DNA of 64,000 nucleotides, taken from positions 352,001 to 416,000 of the forward strand of contig JAWLHY010000001.1 of the NCBI GenBank assembly GCA_041690135.1, read 5' to 3'. This DNA is from Armatimonadota bacterium. Lineage in GTDB: Bacteria > Armatimonadota > SYMT01. Under the pieces are notes generated by a model. It searched no databases. It saw nothing but the letters and a program-made list of their open reading frames with translations, and was not told the DNA's origin. Of this stretch, positions 54,539 to 64,000 are shown piece by piece. Made by a program: the position numbers and the translations under genes. Position 1 is the first letter of the stretch; every line of letters begins with the position of its first letter.

Positions 54539-56242
54539 ATGAGACATTTGGTCAAGCTGGTAATGGCCGTGGCCCTGCTCGGGACGGGCTGGCCGCTGGT
54601 CCGCCCCTGGATCCCCTCGGGGCCGCTCCCGGCCGCCGTACCCGCGGCAGGTACTTCCGCCGTGGTGCCGGGCCAGATCGTGGTCGACGCCCGCGACAGC
54701 CTCTCCGACGCGGACCTCGACGCGCTCGACCGCAAGTACGGGGTCGACTTCCGCCTCAACAGCGTCCACGCGGATGACGAGAACCTCCTCATCGCCGACG
54801 TGACCCCCGGCACCGAGGCCGCCCTGCTGGAGCGCCTGCGGAAGGACCCGGCGGTCGAGGCGGCGGAGCCGATGCACCGCTACTCGATCAACTGGACCCC
54901 CAACGATCCCCGTTTCAAGGAGCAGTGGAACCTGAAGCTGATCGGCGCCGAGAAGGCCTGGGACAAGACCCGCGGCAAGGGCGTGGTCGTGGCGGTGATC
55001 GATACCGGCGTCGCCTTCGAGAACGACGACAAGTGCTACCGCGCCCGCGACTTCGGCGAGACGAAGTTCACGAAGGGCTACGATTTCGTCAACGACGACG
55101 AGCACCCCAACGACGACCACGGGCACGGCACGCATGTCTCGGGGACCATCGCCGAAACCACCAACAATGCGGAAGGCGTGGCGGGCCTGGCGTTCGAAGC
55201 CACGATCATGCCGATCAAGGTACTCAACGAGTTCGGCGGGGGGACCTCGGCCGATATCGCCGACGCCATCCGCTGGGCGGCGGACAACGGCGCCCACATC
55301 ATCAACATGAGCCTGGGCGGCTCCATGCCGGACATGGCGATGCGGATGGCCTGCCGCTACGCCGCCAAGAAAGGCGTGCTCATCGTGTGCGCCGCGGGCA
55401 ACAGCGGCGGCGGCCCCGTGGGCTACCCGGCCGCCTTCCCGGAATGCTTCGCGGTGTCCGCGGTCGGCCCGTCCGGTAAGCTCGCCCGCTACTCTTCCGT
55501 CGGCAAGCAGGTCGGCATCGCGGCGCCCGGCGGCGATAAGAGCACCGGCGAGAACGACGGCATCCTCCAGAACACGGTGCTGTTCGACACCGGCCAGCGG
55601 GAAGACGACTACTTCTCCTTCCAGGGAACGTCGATGGCCAGCCCGCACGTCGCCGCGGCGGCCGCCCTCGCGATGTCGATGGGCGTGAAGGACGCGGCGG
55701 AGGTGAAGCAGCTCCTCCAGCGCGCCGCCACCCCGCAGAAGCCCGCCGAGCATTACGGCGCCGGGGTATTGAACGCGGAGAAGACGGTCGCCCTCGCCGA
55801 GGATGCCCGCCGCGATTCCTTCTGGAAGCTGATCTTCTCGCTGGCGGTCGGCCTCGCTGGGCTGGGCGTGGGCGCGGTCCGCGGCCGCGTGGGAGGGTTG
55901 CTCCGCTTCCCGTTCGCGCCGCTGGGGCTGCTGCTCGGCTTCTGGGGCCCGGACCTGGTGTTCCACTGGATCGGCTTCGGCTCGCCGTTCAACATCCTGC
56001 TCCACAGCGCCCTGATCCCGCTCTACCTGCTGTGGGAAGCGGAGAGCAAGCCGGTCTACCGCTTCGTGGGGACCATCTCCCTCGGGGTGGCGCTCCACCT
56101 GGCCTGGGACGCCTGGCAGGCCCACGCCCCATTCGTGGGCGTCCTGCCGATGCACGCCGCGCCCTGGCTCTACGTCAACGCTGCCGTCGGCGTGGGCGTG
56201 GCCCTCGTAGCCTGGGCCCGCTCCTTCCGAGCAGCGGACTGA
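54539..56242 (+). CDS. S8 subtilase with C-terminal multi-TM membrane domain
   Basis: VAVIDTG / HGTHVSG / GTSMASPH triad; ~5 hydrophobic helices at the C-terminus. Confidence 0.93.
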   Translation: MRHLVKLVMAVALLGTGWPLVRPWIPSGPLPAAVPAAGTSAVVPGQIVVDARDSLSDADLDALDRKYGVDFRLNSVHADDENLLIADVTPGTEAALLERLRKDPAVEAAEPMHRYSINWTPNDPRFKEQWNLKLIGAEKAWDKTRGKGVVVAVIDTGVAFENDDKCYRARDFGETKFTKGYDFVNDDEHPNDDHGHGTHVSGTIAETTNNAEGVAGLAFEATIMPIKVLNEFGGGTSADIADAIRWAADNGAHIINMSLGGSMPDMAMRMACRYAAKKGVLIVCAAGNSGGGPVGYPAAFPECFAVSAVGPSGKLARYSSVGKQVGIAAPGGDKSTGENDGILQNTVLFDTGQREDDYFSFQGTSMASPHVAAAAALAMSMGVKDAAEVKQLLQRAATPQKPAEHYGAGVLNAEKTVALAEDARRDSFWKLIFSLAVGLAGLGVGAVRGRVGGLLRFPFAPLGLLLGFWGPDLVFHWIGFGSPFNILLHSALIPLYLLWEAESKPVYRFVGTISLGVALHLAWDAWQAHAPFVGVLPMHAAPWLYVNAAVGVGVALVAWARSFRAAD

Positions 56243-58579: not shown

Positions 58580-59452
58580 ATGCTGCGCCTGAAAGACATT
58601 CCGCCGGAAGAGATGCCCGAAGTCGTGCGGGTCGCCAACGAGCTGTACGAGAAGGACCGCCGTCGCGCGGAGCAGGACCAGGAGCGCCGCAACTACGTGG
58701 ATGCCGCCGAAGAGCTCGGCGTACCCCCGGAGTACATGGAGCAAGCCGCGCAGGAGCTGCACCGCCGCCGCGTGGCGGAAGCCGAGGTTAAGAACCGGAG
58801 TAAGGTCTGGAAGTCGGTCGCCATCGGCGGGGGAGTGGGGGTGCTCACCGTCTTCCTGATGATGGGGATGTTCACCGTGCGGAGCGTCGAGACCGTGCCG
58901 GCTACGCCGGTTCAGCAGGTGGCGCAGGCACAGCCGGAGTTCCTCACCCAGGTAGCCCCCGAGACCTTCGATGCCGGCGCCGCCAACCGATGGACCTTCA
59001 CGATGAACCCGTCCACGCGGGCCACCACCACTTTTGAGGAGGAGGAGGGCCTGAGGCGTGGCGTCGCCGTGATCCGGGTGGAGCAGTTCGGCACGACCGG
59101 CGGACCCCACCGCGCCAACTTCGAGAGCATCCAAACCCCTCCCAGCCTGGCCGGGAAGAAGGAAATCCAGTTTGACCTGCGGGGCCAGGGATTAAAGAAC
59201 ATCCGGGTCTACCTGGAACGCGGCCAGAACGAGCGGTGGCGCTCGCCGGAATTGAAGATTCCCTCCGGCTGGCAATCGGTCCGCGTGCCGCTGGGCAACT
59301 TCCAGCACCAGGTCCACTCTGGAGGTCGCTGGCGCACCCGGGGCCGGGTACGTCCGGACCAGATCGACCGCGTCTCCTTCAAGCTGGGCGACTTCATGAA
59401 TGAGCCCAGTGCGAAGGGCGAGGTCCGGCTCGACAACGTCCGGTTCGAATGA
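58580..59452 (+). CDS. Single-TM protein with helical N-terminus and C-terminal CBM11/CIA30-like beta-sandwich
   Basis: AAEELGVPPEY helix, TM, IQFDLRG...WQSVRVPLGNF...VRLDNVRF; TATAAT at 58542-58547; ATGA overlap with the next gene. Confidence 0.75.
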   Translation: MLRLKDIPPEEMPEVVRVANELYEKDRRRAEQDQERRNYVDAAEELGVPPEYMEQAAQELHRRRVAEAEVKNRSKVWKSVAIGGGVGVLTVFLMMGMFTVRSVETVPATPVQQVAQAQPEFLTQVAPETFDAGAANRWTFTMNPSTRATTTFEEEEGLRRGVAVIRVEQFGTTGGPHRANFESIQTPPSLAGKKEIQFDLRGQGLKNIRVYLERGQNERWRSPELKIPSGWQSVRVPLGNFQHQVHSGGRWRTRGRVRPDQIDRVSFKLGDFMNEPSAKGEVRLDNVRFE

Positions 59453-61086
59453 GCCGGATCCGCTCTTCTGAGTGGGTCGCCCGCGTGGGCCCTGGAGACG
59501 GCCGAGCCCGCCTGGAGGCGGCTCTCGGTCCGGCGAGTGAGCTCCACTGCGGTCCCGGCTGGACCCTCGGACTCCGGACAGGCCCCGGAGAGCCCTGCCG
59601 GATAGGGGAAGTAGAGAGTGGTTTCGAGGTCCGCCTGGGCTACCCGGCGTGGTCGGGGAGTAATGTCCGGACCGACTCTACCGTTCCCGCTCTCCAGGCC
59701 CAGGGAGATCCGTTCGGGCTGTGCCCCGTCTACTATCGGTCCGCGGGCGGGGCGGGGGAGTGCGGCTCGTCGCTGGCGGTACTGCGGGCGGGAGACCGGA
59801 GTGCCTCCGCGCTGGACCCGGCGGCGCTGCACGGTTACCTCTGCTTCTCGCACGTGCCGGCGCCGCTCACACTGTTCGCGGGGTGCCGGACCGTGCCGGC
59901 CGGGGACCTCCTGCGGCTCACTCCCGGCGGCGTGGAGTTGGAGAGCGTTCCTCGCTGGACGGAGCGCGAGCCCCGGACCGCCGACCTCCCCGTCCTGGCG
60001 GCAGAGCTCCGGGAGCACCTGCGGAGGGCGGTCCGGCAGCAGTTGGGGGAAGAACGCGAGGCGGCGGTTTTCCTCTCGGGCGGTCTGGACAGCAGCCTGG
60101 TCGCGGCGCTCCTCGTGGAAGCCGGGATCCGGGTTCATCTCTTCACGCTCGACTTCGGTCCCCCGTGGGATGCGGAGCTGCCCCTGGCGCGGCAGGTGGC
60201 GGAGCACCTCGGTCGACCGCTGCATGGGGTCCCCGCTCGCGGGAAGGAGATCGCCGGCGCCCTGGAGCCGACCGCCGCCGCGCTGGAGCAGCCGTTCGGG
60301 GATGCGGTCACCGTGCCGCTCTACCTCCTCGGTCGAGCCGCCGCGCAGCACTGCTTTCTGGCGTTCAATGGGGAGGGTGGGGATCAGCTCTTCGGCGGCT
60401 GGACCAACAAGCCAATGATCGCGGCGGAGCTGTACGCCGGAGAGGGCTACGACCGCGTCGGCGCCTACCTGCAAACCTACCACCGCTTCTGGGGACGGAC
60501 GGAATCCCTTTACACCCGCCCCACGCGAGAGCGGGCCGCGCGCTGCGATCCGGCGGAGTGGGTGCGTCCGGCGCTGGAGGCTCCCGGATTCCGCTGCCTG
60601 CTGCACCGCCTGCGCGCGGCGAATCTGTGGCTGAAGGGGGCCCAGAACATCGCGCCGCGTTCCGTCCAACTCGCCGCCGTTCACGGCCTGCGCCTCCGGT
60701 CCCCCTTCTTCGATCCCGCTTTGACGGAGTGGACCTTTTCCCTGCCGCCGGAGGTGTTCTTGCAAGGCGCGTGTGAAAAGTACCTCCTGAAACGCGTGGC
60801 CGAGGCCTATCTTCCGGAGGAGGTCGTCTGGCGGGAGAAGCGCGGGATGGGCGTCCCCGCCTCGGACTGGTGCCTGGGACCCCTCAAGCGGCAGGTCGGA
60901 CACTACCTGCACCCGCGCCGCTTGAAGCGGGACGGCCTGTTCGAGCCGGCGTTCGTGGAAGCGCTCCGCCGCGGGCAGGATCAACCCGGCGAGTTCCGCT
61001 CGCGCCGCCTGGGCGAAAAGCTGTGGCTCCTGCTGATGCTGCACGCATGGGTCGAAGTGCACGGGATCCCCCTGGCGTTGCCTTGA
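59449..61086 (+). CDS. Asparagine synthetase-like (AsnB family) ATP-dependent amide ligase lacking the glutaminase Cys
   Basis: DPFGLCPVYY, PP-loop FLSGGLDSS, NGEGGDQLFGG, RSPFFD, EKYLLKR, REKRG. Confidence 0.88.
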   Translation: MSRIRSSEWVARVGPGDGRARLEAALGPASELHCGPGWTLGLRTGPGEPCRIGEVESGFEVRLGYPAWSGSNVRTDSTVPALQAQGDPFGLCPVYYRSAGGAGECGSSLAVLRAGDRSASALDPAALHGYLCFSHVPAPLTLFAGCRTVPAGDLLRLTPGGVELESVPRWTEREPRTADLPVLAAELREHLRRAVRQQLGEEREAAVFLSGGLDSSLVAALLVEAGIRVHLFTLDFGPPWDAELPLARQVAEHLGRPLHGVPARGKEIAGALEPTAAALEQPFGDAVTVPLYLLGRAAAQHCFLAFNGEGGDQLFGGWTNKPMIAAELYAGEGYDRVGAYLQTYHRFWGRTESLYTRPTRERAARCDPAEWVRPALEAPGFRCLLHRLRAANLWLKGAQNIAPRSVQLAAVHGLRLRSPFFDPALTEWTFSLPPEVFLQGACEKYLLKRVAEAYLPEEVVWREKRGMGVPASDWCLGPLKRQVGHYLHPRRLKRDGLFEPAFVEALRRGQDQPGEFRSRRLGEKLWLLLMLHAWVEVHGIPLALP

Positions 61087-61295: not shown

Positions 61296-61781
61296 ATGGC
61301 CCGCGCAGCGGTCGAGTCGGAAGCGGCCGAATTGGCTCCGCCGACACCTGTAAGGGCGGCTGAGAAGGCTGCGAGGCAAGATGCCGGGCAGGCTTTAGAC
61401 ACTGCCCGTGCGCTCGACCGTGCCCGGTACATCATCCGGGGCCGCTGGTACCGGGAGCGAATGGCAGCCGCCATGGCCATCCATGCGCGCATCAAATTGG
61501 TGACGAGTTGTATCCTGGGAGCGGGGATCCTGGCAACGATTTCCATCCCAGTGACCGTACCGGACTACGTTTTCCTAATTGCCCAGTATGTAGTTTGGAT
61601 CCCCTTGCTGTTCTTCGTGGCAGCGGTGCTGGCTGATCGCCTGGCTCGGATCTTGACGAAGGCTGCCGTCCGGCGCGTTCGAAACGCCGCGAGGAGTGAA
61701 GGTTTTGATATCGATAATCATGCCACCTATCCCTGGGAACGGGATGCCGCGAGAAGTAAGTGGATCGATTCCGGCTTTTGA
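61296..61781 (+). CDS. Hypothetical two-TM protein
   Basis: Two hydrophobic helices; lower GC than neighbours; start uncertain because the 5' end overlaps a repeat. Confidence 0.5.
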   Translation: MARAAVESEAAELAPPTPVRAAEKAARQDAGQALDTARALDRARYIIRGRWYRERMAAAMAIHARIKLVTSCILGAGILATISIPVTVPDYVFLIAQYVVWIPLLFFVAAVLADRLARILTKAAVRRVRNAARSEGFDIDNHATYPWERDAARSKWIDSGF

Positions 61782-61886: not shown

Positions 61887-63023
61887 ATGAAATGCATCCA
61901 CTGCAACACCGACTCGACTTATAAGGACCGGCAGGCGAACGACGGCCGGTGCAAGCAGTGCCGGCACCCCTTCGCCTTCGATCCCCGGGCCAACCCCGAA
62001 CACAAGATGTCGGATGGGCTCTTCCAGCGGGCGATCCTGGAGGTTTCCGAGAAGGGAACCCTATCGTTCACCGAAACGCAGCTCTACTACGAGGTCTGTC
62101 GCCGCCTGGACAAGAAGTTGAGCTGGTCCATGAACACCACCGGTGGGGTGCTGGCGGGTTTTGGTGGGTTCGGGGGTGTCGTGGCCTCCATCGTGATGGG
62201 GTCCTTCTGGCCCCTGTTCCTGATCAGTGCTCCCGCGCTGGTGGCGGGCATCGCTGTGAGCCGGATGAAGCCGAAGCAGTCGGTCCGCACACCGCCCCTG
62301 GAGTTACACGGCTTCCACGCCACCTACATGAAGCGGTGGGAAGAAGTCCACGGCGCGCCGGAGCGCCTGATGCGGTCGGCGGCGCCGGCGCCTCGGGCGG
62401 CACCCGGCGGGCCGGATCCCGTGGCCGGAGAGCCGGATCTGACGGCCTACAGCTTCGACCGGGCTCTGGTGACCCAATCGGCCGACCTGGCCGCGGCGCT
62501 GGTGGCCAACAACTTCCACTTCGAGAACAACTGCGCCATCCTGAGCCTCGACGGCTATCCCTTCGACCGCCGGGATACGATCCTGACGATGCTCCGCCGC
62601 AACCCGAGCCTCAAGGTGTTTGCCCTCCACGACGCATCTCCCCGTGGGTGTGAAATGGTCCACGCCCTCCGTGCCTCCACCTGGTTCCCCGAAACGACCG
62701 TCCAGATCATCGACCTGGGTCTGCGTCCCGCGCACGTGATGAAGAGCCGGATGTACGCGCACCAGGCCGCGGCGGGTGGGTTGACCCCCCAGTTGCGCAG
62801 CTACCTGCAAGGGGACGAGCTGGAGTGGCTTGACTCCGGCAAGGTCGCCTCGGTGCAGCAGTTCCGCCCGGCCCGCCTGATGCGCTCCATCTACCAGGGG
62901 TTCGCCCGCGCCAACCAGATGGGAGCCGACGGGTCGGTGGGGGACGCCGGCGTCGGCGACCCCGGCTTCATCTGGATCCACACCCCGATGGCGGACGTGT
63001 ATGCGGCGGACAGCTTCGGTTAG
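61887..63023 (+). CDS. Zn-ribbon, two-TM protein with Spo11/TopoVI-A-like CAP and TOPRIM motifs
   Basis: CIHC...CKQC; FTETQLYY; TM hairpin; NNFHFENNCAILSLDGYP, FALHDASPRG, IDLGLRP. Confidence 0.7.
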   Translation: MKCIHCNTDSTYKDRQANDGRCKQCRHPFAFDPRANPEHKMSDGLFQRAILEVSEKGTLSFTETQLYYEVCRRLDKKLSWSMNTTGGVLAGFGGFGGVVASIVMGSFWPLFLISAPALVAGIAVSRMKPKQSVRTPPLELHGFHATYMKRWEEVHGAPERLMRSAAPAPRAAPGGPDPVAGEPDLTAYSFDRALVTQSADLAAALVANNFHFENNCAILSLDGYPFDRRDTILTMLRRNPSLKVFALHDASPRGCEMVHALRASTWFPETTVQIIDLGLRPAHVMKSRMYAHQAAAGGLTPQLRSYLQGDELEWLDSGKVASVQQFRPARLMRSIYQGFARANQMGADGSVGDAGVGDPGFIWIHTPMADVYAADSFG

Positions 63024-64000
63024 ATGAAGAGTTTCGTCGGCGTCTACGGCGCTCCGGATCCTGCCGAAGCCTTGAGAAGAGCCGGTCACCCGGTGGGGTG
63101 GTCCGATGCCGAGGTGGCCTTCTCGGGGGCGGAGACCTGGGTCAGCCCGGACGGGGACCTGGTCGTAGCCGGGAAAGCGGTCCTCGATCCCCACGACGGC
63201 ACCCCGGGCGACCTGGCCTGTCCACGGACCTCTCCCTTCGAGCATTTCGGCGAGCTCTATCGCCGGTACGGACTGCAGGCTGCCCGCCACGCGCTCGGGA
63301 TGTTCGCCCTGGCCGTGTGGGACTGCCGGAGCCGCGAACTCCACCTCTTCCGGGATGCGACCGGGGCTCGCACCCTCTATCACGCGCAGCAGGGCCGGGA
63401 GTGCTGGTTCAGCACCCGGCTCCGGGTGCTGCGGCGCAGCCCGGCAGTCTCCGGGGAGCTCTCGCTTCCGGCGCTGCGGGCTTACCTGGCCCTGGCCTAT
63501 GTGCCGGGCGAGCTCACCATGTGGAAGGATGCCCGCGAGCTGCGCCCCGGGACGCTCCTCACACTCCCTTCCGGCCGGGTCACGACCTATTGGGAGCCCG
63601 AGGAAAGGGAGCCTGCCGAGGGGGAGACGCTGGAAAGCTGCGCCGGGCGGCTGCGTCCCCTGCTGGAGGAGTGCGTCCGGGTGCGCCTCCCGGCCAACGA
63701 AACCGAGCCCGTGGGGATCTATCTCTCCGGGGGGCTGGACAGCAGCCTGGTCGTGGCGCTGGCGGCGCGCCTCCACCGGGGGCCGGTACACACGTACGCC
63801 ATCCACTTCGGCCACGAATACCCGAACGAGCTCGTATTTTCCGACATGGTGGCCCGGCACTGCGGCACCCGTCATCAGGTGCTGGAGCTGCCGGCGCGGC
63901 TGATCCGCGACATGCTGGCGGAAACCCTGGCGGAGCTGGACGACCCGATTGGCGATCCTCTCACCGTGCCCAACTACCTGCTCGGCCAGGCCGCCCGGAT
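63024..64000 (+). CDS. Second AsnB-like amide ligase (truncated by the window end)
   Basis: Own translation: MKSFVGVYG..., GMFALAVWD, RDATGARTLY, IYLSGGLDSS, LDDPIGDPLTVPNY; ATG directly after the previous TAG. Confidence 0.88.
   Translation, partial: MKSFVGVYGAPDPAEALRRAGHPVGWSDAEVAFSGAETWVSPDGDLVVAGKAVLDPHDGTPGDLACPRTSPFEHFGELYRRYGLQAARHALGMFALAVWDCRSRELHLFRDATGARTLYHAQQGRECWFSTRLRVLRRSPAVSGELSLPALRAYLALAYVPGELTMWKDARELRPGTLLTLPSGRVTTYWEPEEREPAEGETLESCAGRLRPLLEECVRVRLPANETEPVGIYLSGGLDSSLVVALAARLHRGPVHTYAIHFGHEYPNELVFSDMVARHCGTRHQVLELPARLIRDMLAETLAELDDPIGDPLTVPNYLLGQAAR

Follow-up and report, generated by a model that had tools for sequence, protein, structure and literature searches.

A membrane-anchored zinc-ribbon protein with a Top6A-type Toprim domain, encoded in an apparently undescribed module of AsnB-like ligases

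To our knowledge, the Toprim domain of the Top6A/Spo11 type is known only from DNA-cleaving machines, namely topoisomerase (topo) VI, Spo11, topo VIII, Mini-A, and Wadjet JetD/MksG. JetD/MksG, the nuclease subunit of Wadjet (MksBEFG), is a soluble protein that has kept the acidic metal ligands and is encoded together with the SMC-like JetABC. Here we analyze a 64,000-nucleotide stretch of an Armatimonadota bacterium (assembly GCA_041690135.1, contig JAWLHY010000001.1, forward-strand positions 352,001–416,000; hereafter, the window), where the gene at 61887–63023 (+) encodes P0001, a 378-amino-acid (aa) membrane-anchored protein with a zinc ribbon and a Toprim domain, delineated from its translation, alignments, an AlphaFold2 model, and Foldseek. 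P0001 is a Top6A-type Toprim protein in an apparently undescribed gene module, and no description of the family or of the Toprim/AsnB-like module was found in the open-access PMC and bioRxiv literature. For comparison, the accessible part of one study gives the signature of type IIB enzymes as RxxY/FY, E, and DxDxxG, and describes Mini-A as viral or proviral, with the catalytic Tyr, E, and DxDxxG in every member (PMC7671362). In LysW-type amino-group carriers and pearlin peptides, according to the accessible parts of two further papers, a C-terminal extension carries intermediates (PMC12998189, PMC9303977).

The frame at 61887–63023 (+) is free of stops over 378 codons. An earlier note on this DNA had described its product as a membrane-anchored Spo11/Top6A-like protein with a retained YY pair and degenerate Toprim acids, quoting a series of sequence strings, each of which was located in the translation and in the order given: the ribbon cysteines (C3-x2-C6-x15-C22-x2-C25), FTETQLYY at 61–68 (Y67, Y68), ALVTQSAD starting at 193, NNFHFENNCAILSLDGYP at 208, FALHDASPRG at 245, IIDLGLRP at 274, and ELEWLDSGKVA at 311. 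A word-indexed search, with 8000 candidates scored, yielded at least 1173 relatives at E ≤ 1e-3, almost all full-length (340–440 aa), and an exhaustive HMMER scan of 50%-identity representatives found 1126 matching the family, 711 of them at 1e-10; given this number of relatives, the features of P0001 are well above chance expectation. Residue counts below refer to 249 members of 320–500 aa, drawn from 259 family proteins. The relatives are named in their sources "hypothetical protein" or, after the ribbon, "RNA polymerase subunit RPC12/RpoP", and searches with P0001 found no model of the family in Pfam, NCBIfam, PADLOC, or PHROGs. The ESM Atlas contains a homologue, P0011, whose nearest clusters (802 members, Cyanobacteriota being the commonest phylum) bear the name [quoted passage not shown], which is an automatic annotation only.

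Two proteins, P0121 (687 aa) and P0127 (845 aa), contain three and four separate family-matching stretches, respectively, and hence look like fused tandem duplications; Pfam shows no extra enzyme domain in either. A word search for longer proteins, which is weak evidence, returned no fused longer forms of the family. An unannotated stretch of the Streptomyces sp. NBC_01237 plasmid (NZ_CP108509.1, 1091559–1092017) is 33% identical to the Toprim part only (residues 184–337) and may represent a more distant branch.

The Toprim domain occupies residues ~186–345 (62442–62921, +) and includes Q197, H211, E213, H248-D249-A-S251, and D276-LGLRP; it was assigned from PF21180, Foldseek, and the alignments. 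On its own, P0001 scores 18.2 bits against PF21180 (E 0.0025), below the cut-off of 24.1, and the phmmer match to the Methanocaldococcus jannaschii Top6A chain 1d3y is sub-threshold (E 1). PF21180 is matched by 24 of the 34 aligned members (best E 2.6e-6), and of ten longer relatives, four score above the cut-off, with 28.8–40.5 bits. In Foldseek against the Protein Data Bank (PDB), the six top matches are all Top6A chains (E 3.5e-4 to 2.8e-3, probability 1.00; ~180 columns, 18–20% identity), followed by the MksG nuclease, with Spo11 further down and JetD also near. The Toprim similarity sought by the profile and structure searches that the earlier note had proposed is thus found, and its Spo11/Top6A likeness holds for this domain.

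In the register of the 1d3y alignment, Q197 corresponds to the Toprim Glu and H248-D249-A250-S251 to T-D-G-D, in agreement with the suggestion that the Glu and the second Asp are replaced in P0001. Position 197 is occupied by Asp in 150 members, Glu in 55, Gln in 28, and other residues in 16; position 249 by Asp (205), Asn (30), and Ser (11); and position 251 by Ser (174), Thr (58), and Asp in only six. Position 68 is Tyr in 225 members (otherwise His 7, Trp 5, Phe 4, Leu 3, Asn 2, other or gap 3), while position 67 is Trp in 116, Tyr in 56, and Phe in 22; hence, the YY pair is indeed retained in P0001, but family-wide only Tyr68 is well kept. Arg (107) or Lys (66) is seen at position 64, where P0001 has Thr, and the motif [RK]xx[WYF]Y is present in 123 of the 249 members, P0001 reading T-Q-L-Y-Y. 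All of R/K64, Y68, an acidic residue at 197, D249, and D251 occur together in a single member. Classified by positions 68 and 197, 186 proteins are Tyr/acidic, 39 Tyr/non-acidic, 19 non-Tyr/acidic, and five non-Tyr/non-acidic, the losses of Tyr68 and of the acidic residue being independent; nearly all of the 63 members lacking one or both retain the remaining family motifs and the C-terminal tail. Both P0001 and its 81% identical relative P0002 lack the signature Arg and the acidic residue 197. Towards the end of the domain, the consensus xELxxL (E322 in 206 members, L323 in 218; S322 in P0001) resembles the C-terminal T2BI box of type IIB enzymes as presented in the accessible part of PMC7671362.

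The likeness appears not to extend to the CAP domain. Pfam TP6A_N matched none of the 34 members at E ≤ 0.1, Top6A structural alignments of P0001 in Foldseek start at residue 163 or later, and the profile of the whole-family alignment A1 has no significant CAP match among PDB sequences. Comparison by hhalign of A1 and of an N-terminal profile, A2 (first 85 residues, 30 sequences, five phyla), with bacterial Top6A and its alignment A5 gave nothing significant (A2 versus A5, E 0.31, aligned to an unrelated region) and did not pair the family FT.(R/K)QL(W/Y)Y with TSIRGLFY of Top6A, this test having little power because of the low diversity of A5, which comes from the canonical Top6A–Top6B locus of the window's phylum and has members 75–92% identical. 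For a 5Y-CAP domain in P0001, we are leaning negative.

The absence of an adjacent Top6B, pointed out earlier, is confirmed, the genes around the target encoding AsnB-like enzymes, a cupin, and a membrane protein; TP6A_N and Topo-VIb_trans were not found in the 97%-complete genome, with control archaeal genomes matched. Since the Tyr/Arg/Glu/DxD set is not maintained, P0001 is, judging from its residues, neither a Spo11/Top6A enzyme nor a Spo11-type DNA cutter or topoisomerase; and the degenerate residues, their independent losses, and the genome lacking TP6A_N and Topo-VIb argue that the function conserved in the family is something other than canonical Tyr/Mg DNA cleavage, and this holds most of all for P0001. 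A canonical bacterial Top6B–Top6A pair does occur in one of 301 genomes sampled from the window's phylum (L084, G358:C122:1-3098), so that true topo VI and the P0001 family are separate lineages there.

The residues that the family does conserve are mostly its own. None of the 249 members lacks H211 or H248; S189-F-D-R192 is kept in 239–245 at every position, E213 in 237, and D191 and D276 in 239 each; F210-H211-F-E213-N-N215-C216-A is also conserved, SFDR and FHFENNC being kept in >95%, and further conserved sites are W266-F267, D276-x-G278-L, and W314-L315. After the Toprim domain follows an acidic, disordered tail (residues 346–378; 62922–63020, +) ending in ADSFG-COOH and recognized by the AlphaFold2 predicted local distance difference test (pLDDT, <50 for residues 350–378), charge, and the family alignment. 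Its last ~30 residues have a median net charge of -5, and its exact end is under strong preference: C-terminal FG in 234 of the 249 members, [DE]xFG in 216, and DSFG in 176.

At the N-terminus, the C4 zinc ribbon (residues 1–30; 61887–61976, +; pLDDT 94–96) is followed by a conserved FAF(E/D)P motif; the four cysteines are kept in 240 members, the remaining ones being N-terminally truncated. The ribbon weakly resembles those of Rpb12/RpoP, the only type retrieved by A2 among PDB sequences (E ~0.5), and the ribbon region is basic (median isoelectric point, pI, 9.3), while the Toprim domain is near-neutral (median pI 6.85). FTETQLYY (residues 61–68; 62067–62090, +), placed by the translation and the family alignment, starts a long helix that enters the membrane. 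The hydrophobic hairpin of two transmembrane (TM) helices (residues ~85–127; 62139–62267, +), claimed by the earlier note, is borne out by hydropathy (Kyte–Doolittle 19-residue mean >1.4 for window centers 94–119), by the four K/R on either side, and by AlphaFold2 helices 63–104 and 108–127 (34-sequence input alignment, mean pLDDT 81.3, predicted template modeling score 0.78). Residues ~86–127 comprise 42 uncharged residues with a Pro near the middle and an uncharged turn. By a crude count in 221 relatives, 161 have two TM helices and 18 have four. The natural reading of the model is that both soluble parts lie on the K/R-rich side, presumably the cytoplasm.

The gene neighborhood was compared in 80 loci, i.e., the window and 79 of the 80 best genome loci; L009 was left out, as the target gene is not called there, its neighbors nonetheless being present. 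An AsnB-like neighbor is found in 75 loci, the upstream AsnB-like gene (UP) in 71, and the downstream one (DOWN) in 50; the accompanying genes are a membrane protein (59), a decarboxylase (58), and a cupin (10). UP is missing from nine loci, in seven of which the upstream sequence is <2.6 kb long. Two arrangements are seen. In type A (21 loci; Armatimonadota, Poribacteria, Chloroflexota, Gemmatimonadota, an Actinomycetes metagenome-assembled genome, and the window), the order is membrane protein, UP, target, DOWN, and cupin, with genes abutting or overlapping. In type B (58 loci; Cyanobacteria and one Blastocatellia metagenome-assembled genome), it is a shorter membrane protein, UP, a decarboxylase-like pyridoxal-phosphate enzyme, target, and a convergent DOWN; the enzyme is diaminopimelate-decarboxylase-like, with 243 bits for NCBIfam lysA, below the cut-off of 298. 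The membrane proteins of both types have a cytoplasmic N-terminal region and a TM helix in common (alignment A3). In seven type-B loci (L034, L039, L045, L059, L065, L067, and L075), the target is duplicated in tandem. Among the 12 copies checked, from all of these loci but L045, every one has the zinc ribbon, SFDR, FHFENNC, and the FG end, and 11 have H-D/N-A/C-S/T.

The module, of four to six genes, is horizontally mobile. Each of its two types crosses phyla, the cyanobacterial one reaching a Blastocatellia metagenome-assembled genome and the other those of Actinomycetes, Poribacteria, Chloroflexota, and Gemmatimonadota. A full type-B module resides on the conjugative plasmid Cy782202 of Gloeothece verrucosa PCC 7822, its target being annotated "hypothetical protein"; occurrence is patchy, carriers making up 4 of 201 sampled genomes from the window's phylum and 40 of 151 from the order of a cyanobacterial carrier; and the genes beyond the module vary by lineage (K+ channel, subtilase, ThiC, AAA ATPase, Uma2, cytidylyltransferase, glyoxalase). 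No match was found in 50,697 phage records, IMG/VR, or PHROGs, and PADLOC matched no defense family. On the same plasmid (NC_014534.1), two tiny open reading frames (ORFs) lie just upstream of the module (L083 4823–5131), one of them (42 aa) named "PEP-CTERM sorting domain-containing protein", and a protelomerase gene is located 3.4 kb downstream. In five Gemmatimonadota loci (L055, L057, L073, L076, and L077), UP and the target run together in long overlapping called frames.

In AsnB-type enzymes, the N-terminal Cys is the nucleophile required for glutamine hydrolysis. None of ~130 listed N-termini of the AsnB-like neighbors has a Met-Cys start, while the PP-loop SGGxDS is invariant in 24 aligned UP homologues (A4) and the PP-loop is also kept in DOWN. 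From this combination, the amine source should not be glutamine, and the neighbors should activate a carboxylate by adenylation and then link it to an amine of other origin, like the tailoring enzymes of the superfamily. The closest solved relatives of UP are asparagine synthetases (E 1.9e-18), and those of DOWN are the hydroxyamidotransferase 7ylz (E 4e-28), the carbapenam synthetase CarA (2e-19), and beta-lactam synthetase. The NCBIfam lasso-cyclase model scores 132 bits versus a cut-off of 525, and the PEP-CTERM-amidotransferase model also matches far below its cut-off. The module neighborhoods contain no lasso B protease, no RRE, and no conserved small precursor ORF. A separate gene for a precursor of a ribosomally synthesized and post-translationally modified peptide was rejected, as the intergenic parts of the 80 loci hold no conserved ORF of 25–95 aa at the module; the best small-ORF cluster covers only nine closely related Nostoc loci and lies far from it.

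In the window, the operon starts with BS5 (58580–59452, +), a predicted single-pass membrane protein of 290 aa defined by its ORF and the TM-helix alignment, with a predicted helical N-terminus in the cytoplasm, a single TM helix, and a beta-rich domain outside; its Pfam matches are weak, to beta-sandwich families (CIA30, E 0.017), and its N-terminal region and TM helix can be aligned with those of the cyanobacterial counterpart (207 aa). UP (59449–61086, +), an AsnB-like PP-loop adenylating enzyme of 545 aa (Pfam Asn_synthase, E 9e-64), overlaps the stop of BS5 with its start; it lacks the N-terminal nucleophile Cys and has no detectable GATase domain. DOWN, the second such enzyme (562 aa in full; 63024–64000, +, continuing beyond the window end to window-equivalent 64712), has its start codon immediately after the target stop codon, matches Asn_synthase (E 4.8e-73) with a GATase_7 remnant, and also lacks the N-terminal Cys. 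A cupin gene, recognized by its domain, follows at window-equivalent 64709–65389. A promoter and terminator consensus scan found none, and no RNA or DNA sequencing run was listed for the operon. Between UP and the target lies an 800-bp spacer specific to this genome (61087–61886, +; G+C 0.59 versus 0.65–0.70 around), whereas in the other type-A loci these genes directly abut. It contains an ORF (61218 or 61296 to 61781) for a 187-aa predicted membrane protein without a Pfam, NCBIfam, PADLOC, or PHROG family, which was rejected as a part of the module, having no homologue in the other 80 loci.

Further upstream, at 54539–56242 (+), is a subtilase (Peptidase_S8, E 1.7e-56) with a hydrophobic C-terminal region; five Nostoc loci also have a subtilase 1.4–3.5 kb downstream of the target, and a sixth (L063) has one ~5 kb upstream, a proximity that is probably a coincidence. 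Outside the window, a 408-aa ORF (L082 16571–17797, –; G000:C1:421571-422797) combines an N-terminal MerR/HTH_17 with a citrate-synthase domain (E 2e-59) and adjoins an ordinary citrate synthase gene (L082 17886–19052).

Synteny shows that P0001 and the ligases are functionally linked. We infer that P0001 is a dedicated membrane component of the AsnB-like ligase module. In the most likely reading, which we hold with roughly even confidence, P0001 and the single-pass protein from the first gene of the operon would jointly keep both ligases at the membrane, and the acidic C-terminal tail of P0001 would engage them, either as a docking peptide or as a carboxylate acted on. The invariant exact C-terminus suggests recognition of, or chemistry at, the terminal carboxylate; the tail is proposed as the engaging element because AsnB-type enzymes act on -CH2-COO-, offered also by a C-terminal Gly, and because the tail survives in both tandem copies at six of the seven duplicated loci. 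Several observations weigh against this picture. The kind of linkage is not given by synteny; UP is missing from L023 and L025 even though at least 8 kb upstream is available in both, and L023 is without any AsnB-like neighbor. Invariance of the polar residues H211, E213, H248, D191, and D276 would not be expected of a pure scaffold and could point to a metal or catalytic site. Finally, with 90% of members still carrying Tyr68 and 82% still acidic at position 197, Toprim-type activity might persist in some relatives. A stronger version, suggested by analogy and in our view decidedly doubtful, makes P0001 a LysW-like membrane-bound carrier, the tail carboxylate of which would be adenylated by the AsnB-like ligase(s) and joined to an amine. 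The activated carboxylate would be the terminal Gly, sterically like the Asp side chain used by AsnB, or an Asp/Glu of the tail; the tethered intermediate would be processed by the decarboxylase in cyanobacteria and by the cupin elsewhere, or, alternatively, the tail itself would finally be amidated or cross-linked. If true, an AsnB-type system that ligates a protein tail and a Toprim domain recruited to this chemistry would each be the first of their kind.

Other readings assign an activity to the Toprim domain itself. It might have acquired a new enzymatic role in the pathway, e.g., as a metal-dependent hydrolase, amidase, or esterase, with H211/H248 and Asp/Glu acting on a small-molecule or peptide intermediate made by the ligases. 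The complete invariance of both His and the near-invariance of E213, D191, and D276 (237–239 of 249) fit such a role, as do the location of H248-D249 at the Toprim DxD position and a module that has ligases and no obvious hydrolase or release enzyme. However, we know of no Toprim domain that works on non-nucleic-acid substrates, and SFDR and FHFENNC, which precede strands 1 and 2, should lie at the sheet edge opposite H248/D249 as judged from strand order. We regard this role as possible, if unlikely. An improbable view, in our estimate, is that P0001 is a divergent nucleic-acid enzyme that is still active. It could be a nuclease or nickase tethered to the membrane, or an enzyme acting through a covalent Tyr, and might serve as the effector of a defense-like system in which the AsnB-like proteins are regulators or modifiers. 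The fold closest to Top6A, MksG, JetD, and Spo11, the basic N-terminal domain, and the patchy distribution speak for it, as do the consensus (R/K)xx(W/Y/F)Y, similar to RxxY/FY, and xELxxL, similar to the T2BI box, in the accessible part of PMC7671362. Nevertheless, P0001 has T64 in place of the Arg, Q197 in place of the Glu, S251 for the second Asp, and S322 for the T2BI Glu, and the second Asp is nearly absent from the family; Tyr or acid was lost independently in the 63 members that keep the tail and His; the Toprim part is near-neutral; no nuclease-type partners are encoded nearby; and the phage, IMG/VR, and PADLOC comparisons were empty. The earlier proposal of a membrane-tethered DNA sensor or binder or divergent nuclease is partly supported: the membrane anchor and Toprim descent stand; the cutting residues, complete in one member of 249, are not maintained. 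Least probable, and to us rather remote, is a regulatory sensor, in which the degenerate Toprim pocket would bind a nucleotide or metabolite and control the ligases or signal across the membrane with the single-pass partner. Degenerate catalytic residues within a conserved pocket, the membrane location, and the external beta-rich domain of the partner agree with it; however, the comparison of neighbors across loci revealed no conserved output domain, sigma factor, or transcription factor in the module. An anti-sigma-type regulator was rejected, no sigma factor being conserved nearby.

The module is frequent in filamentous cyanobacteria and is found in several soil phyla; solving its product and the role of the tail would assign a function to >1000 sequence clusters, and the module could reveal a new protein-tethered or membrane-localized biosynthesis. 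Among described systems, UP and DOWN match AsnB-superfamily ligases of secondary metabolism (lasso cyclase, carbapenam and beta-lactam synthetases, the hydroxyamidotransferase TsnB9), the tailoring and cyclising members of which are generally also without the glutamine-hydrolysing Cys; they differ in scoring far below the family cut-offs and in being accompanied by no lasso B protease, RRE, or precursor peptide. With LysW and pearlin, as presented in the accessible parts of their descriptions, the likeness is an analogy only, comprising a zinc ribbon, an acidic C-terminal extension, a conserved terminus, and adjoining ATP-dependent amide-forming enzymes. LysW is soluble, small (~54 aa), and served by an ATP-grasp ligase, whereas P0001 has AsnB-like ligases, a hairpin, and a Toprim domain, and no homology is claimed. 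JetD/MksG differs in its genetic context, as no JetABC or MksBEF neighbors are present in the window or the 80 loci, which have AsnB-like genes instead, and PADLOC is empty. Mini-A, compared by its description in the accessible part of the source, is, like P0001, Top6A-related, ~300–400 aa long, and without a B subunit; the P0001 family differs in being degenerate at the Tyr, E, and DxDxxG sites, membrane-anchored, and absent from phage records and IMG/VR. The best structural match, Top6A/Spo11 (PF21180), has a homologous Toprim fold in the same register, with the F..NC-strand-GxP, (H)D..G, and LGL.P motifs in the same order. Where Top6A has 5Y-CAP, none being detected in P0001, the latter shows a zinc ribbon and a membrane hairpin; it has Gln for Glu, D-A-S for DxD, and no Top6B. 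Its gene is accompanied by those of AsnB-like ligases, and the protein ends in an acidic tail whose C-terminus is fixed. The P0001 family thus presents the same type of Toprim domain anchored in the membrane, without the cleavage residues, and within a mobile operon of amide-forming enzymes.

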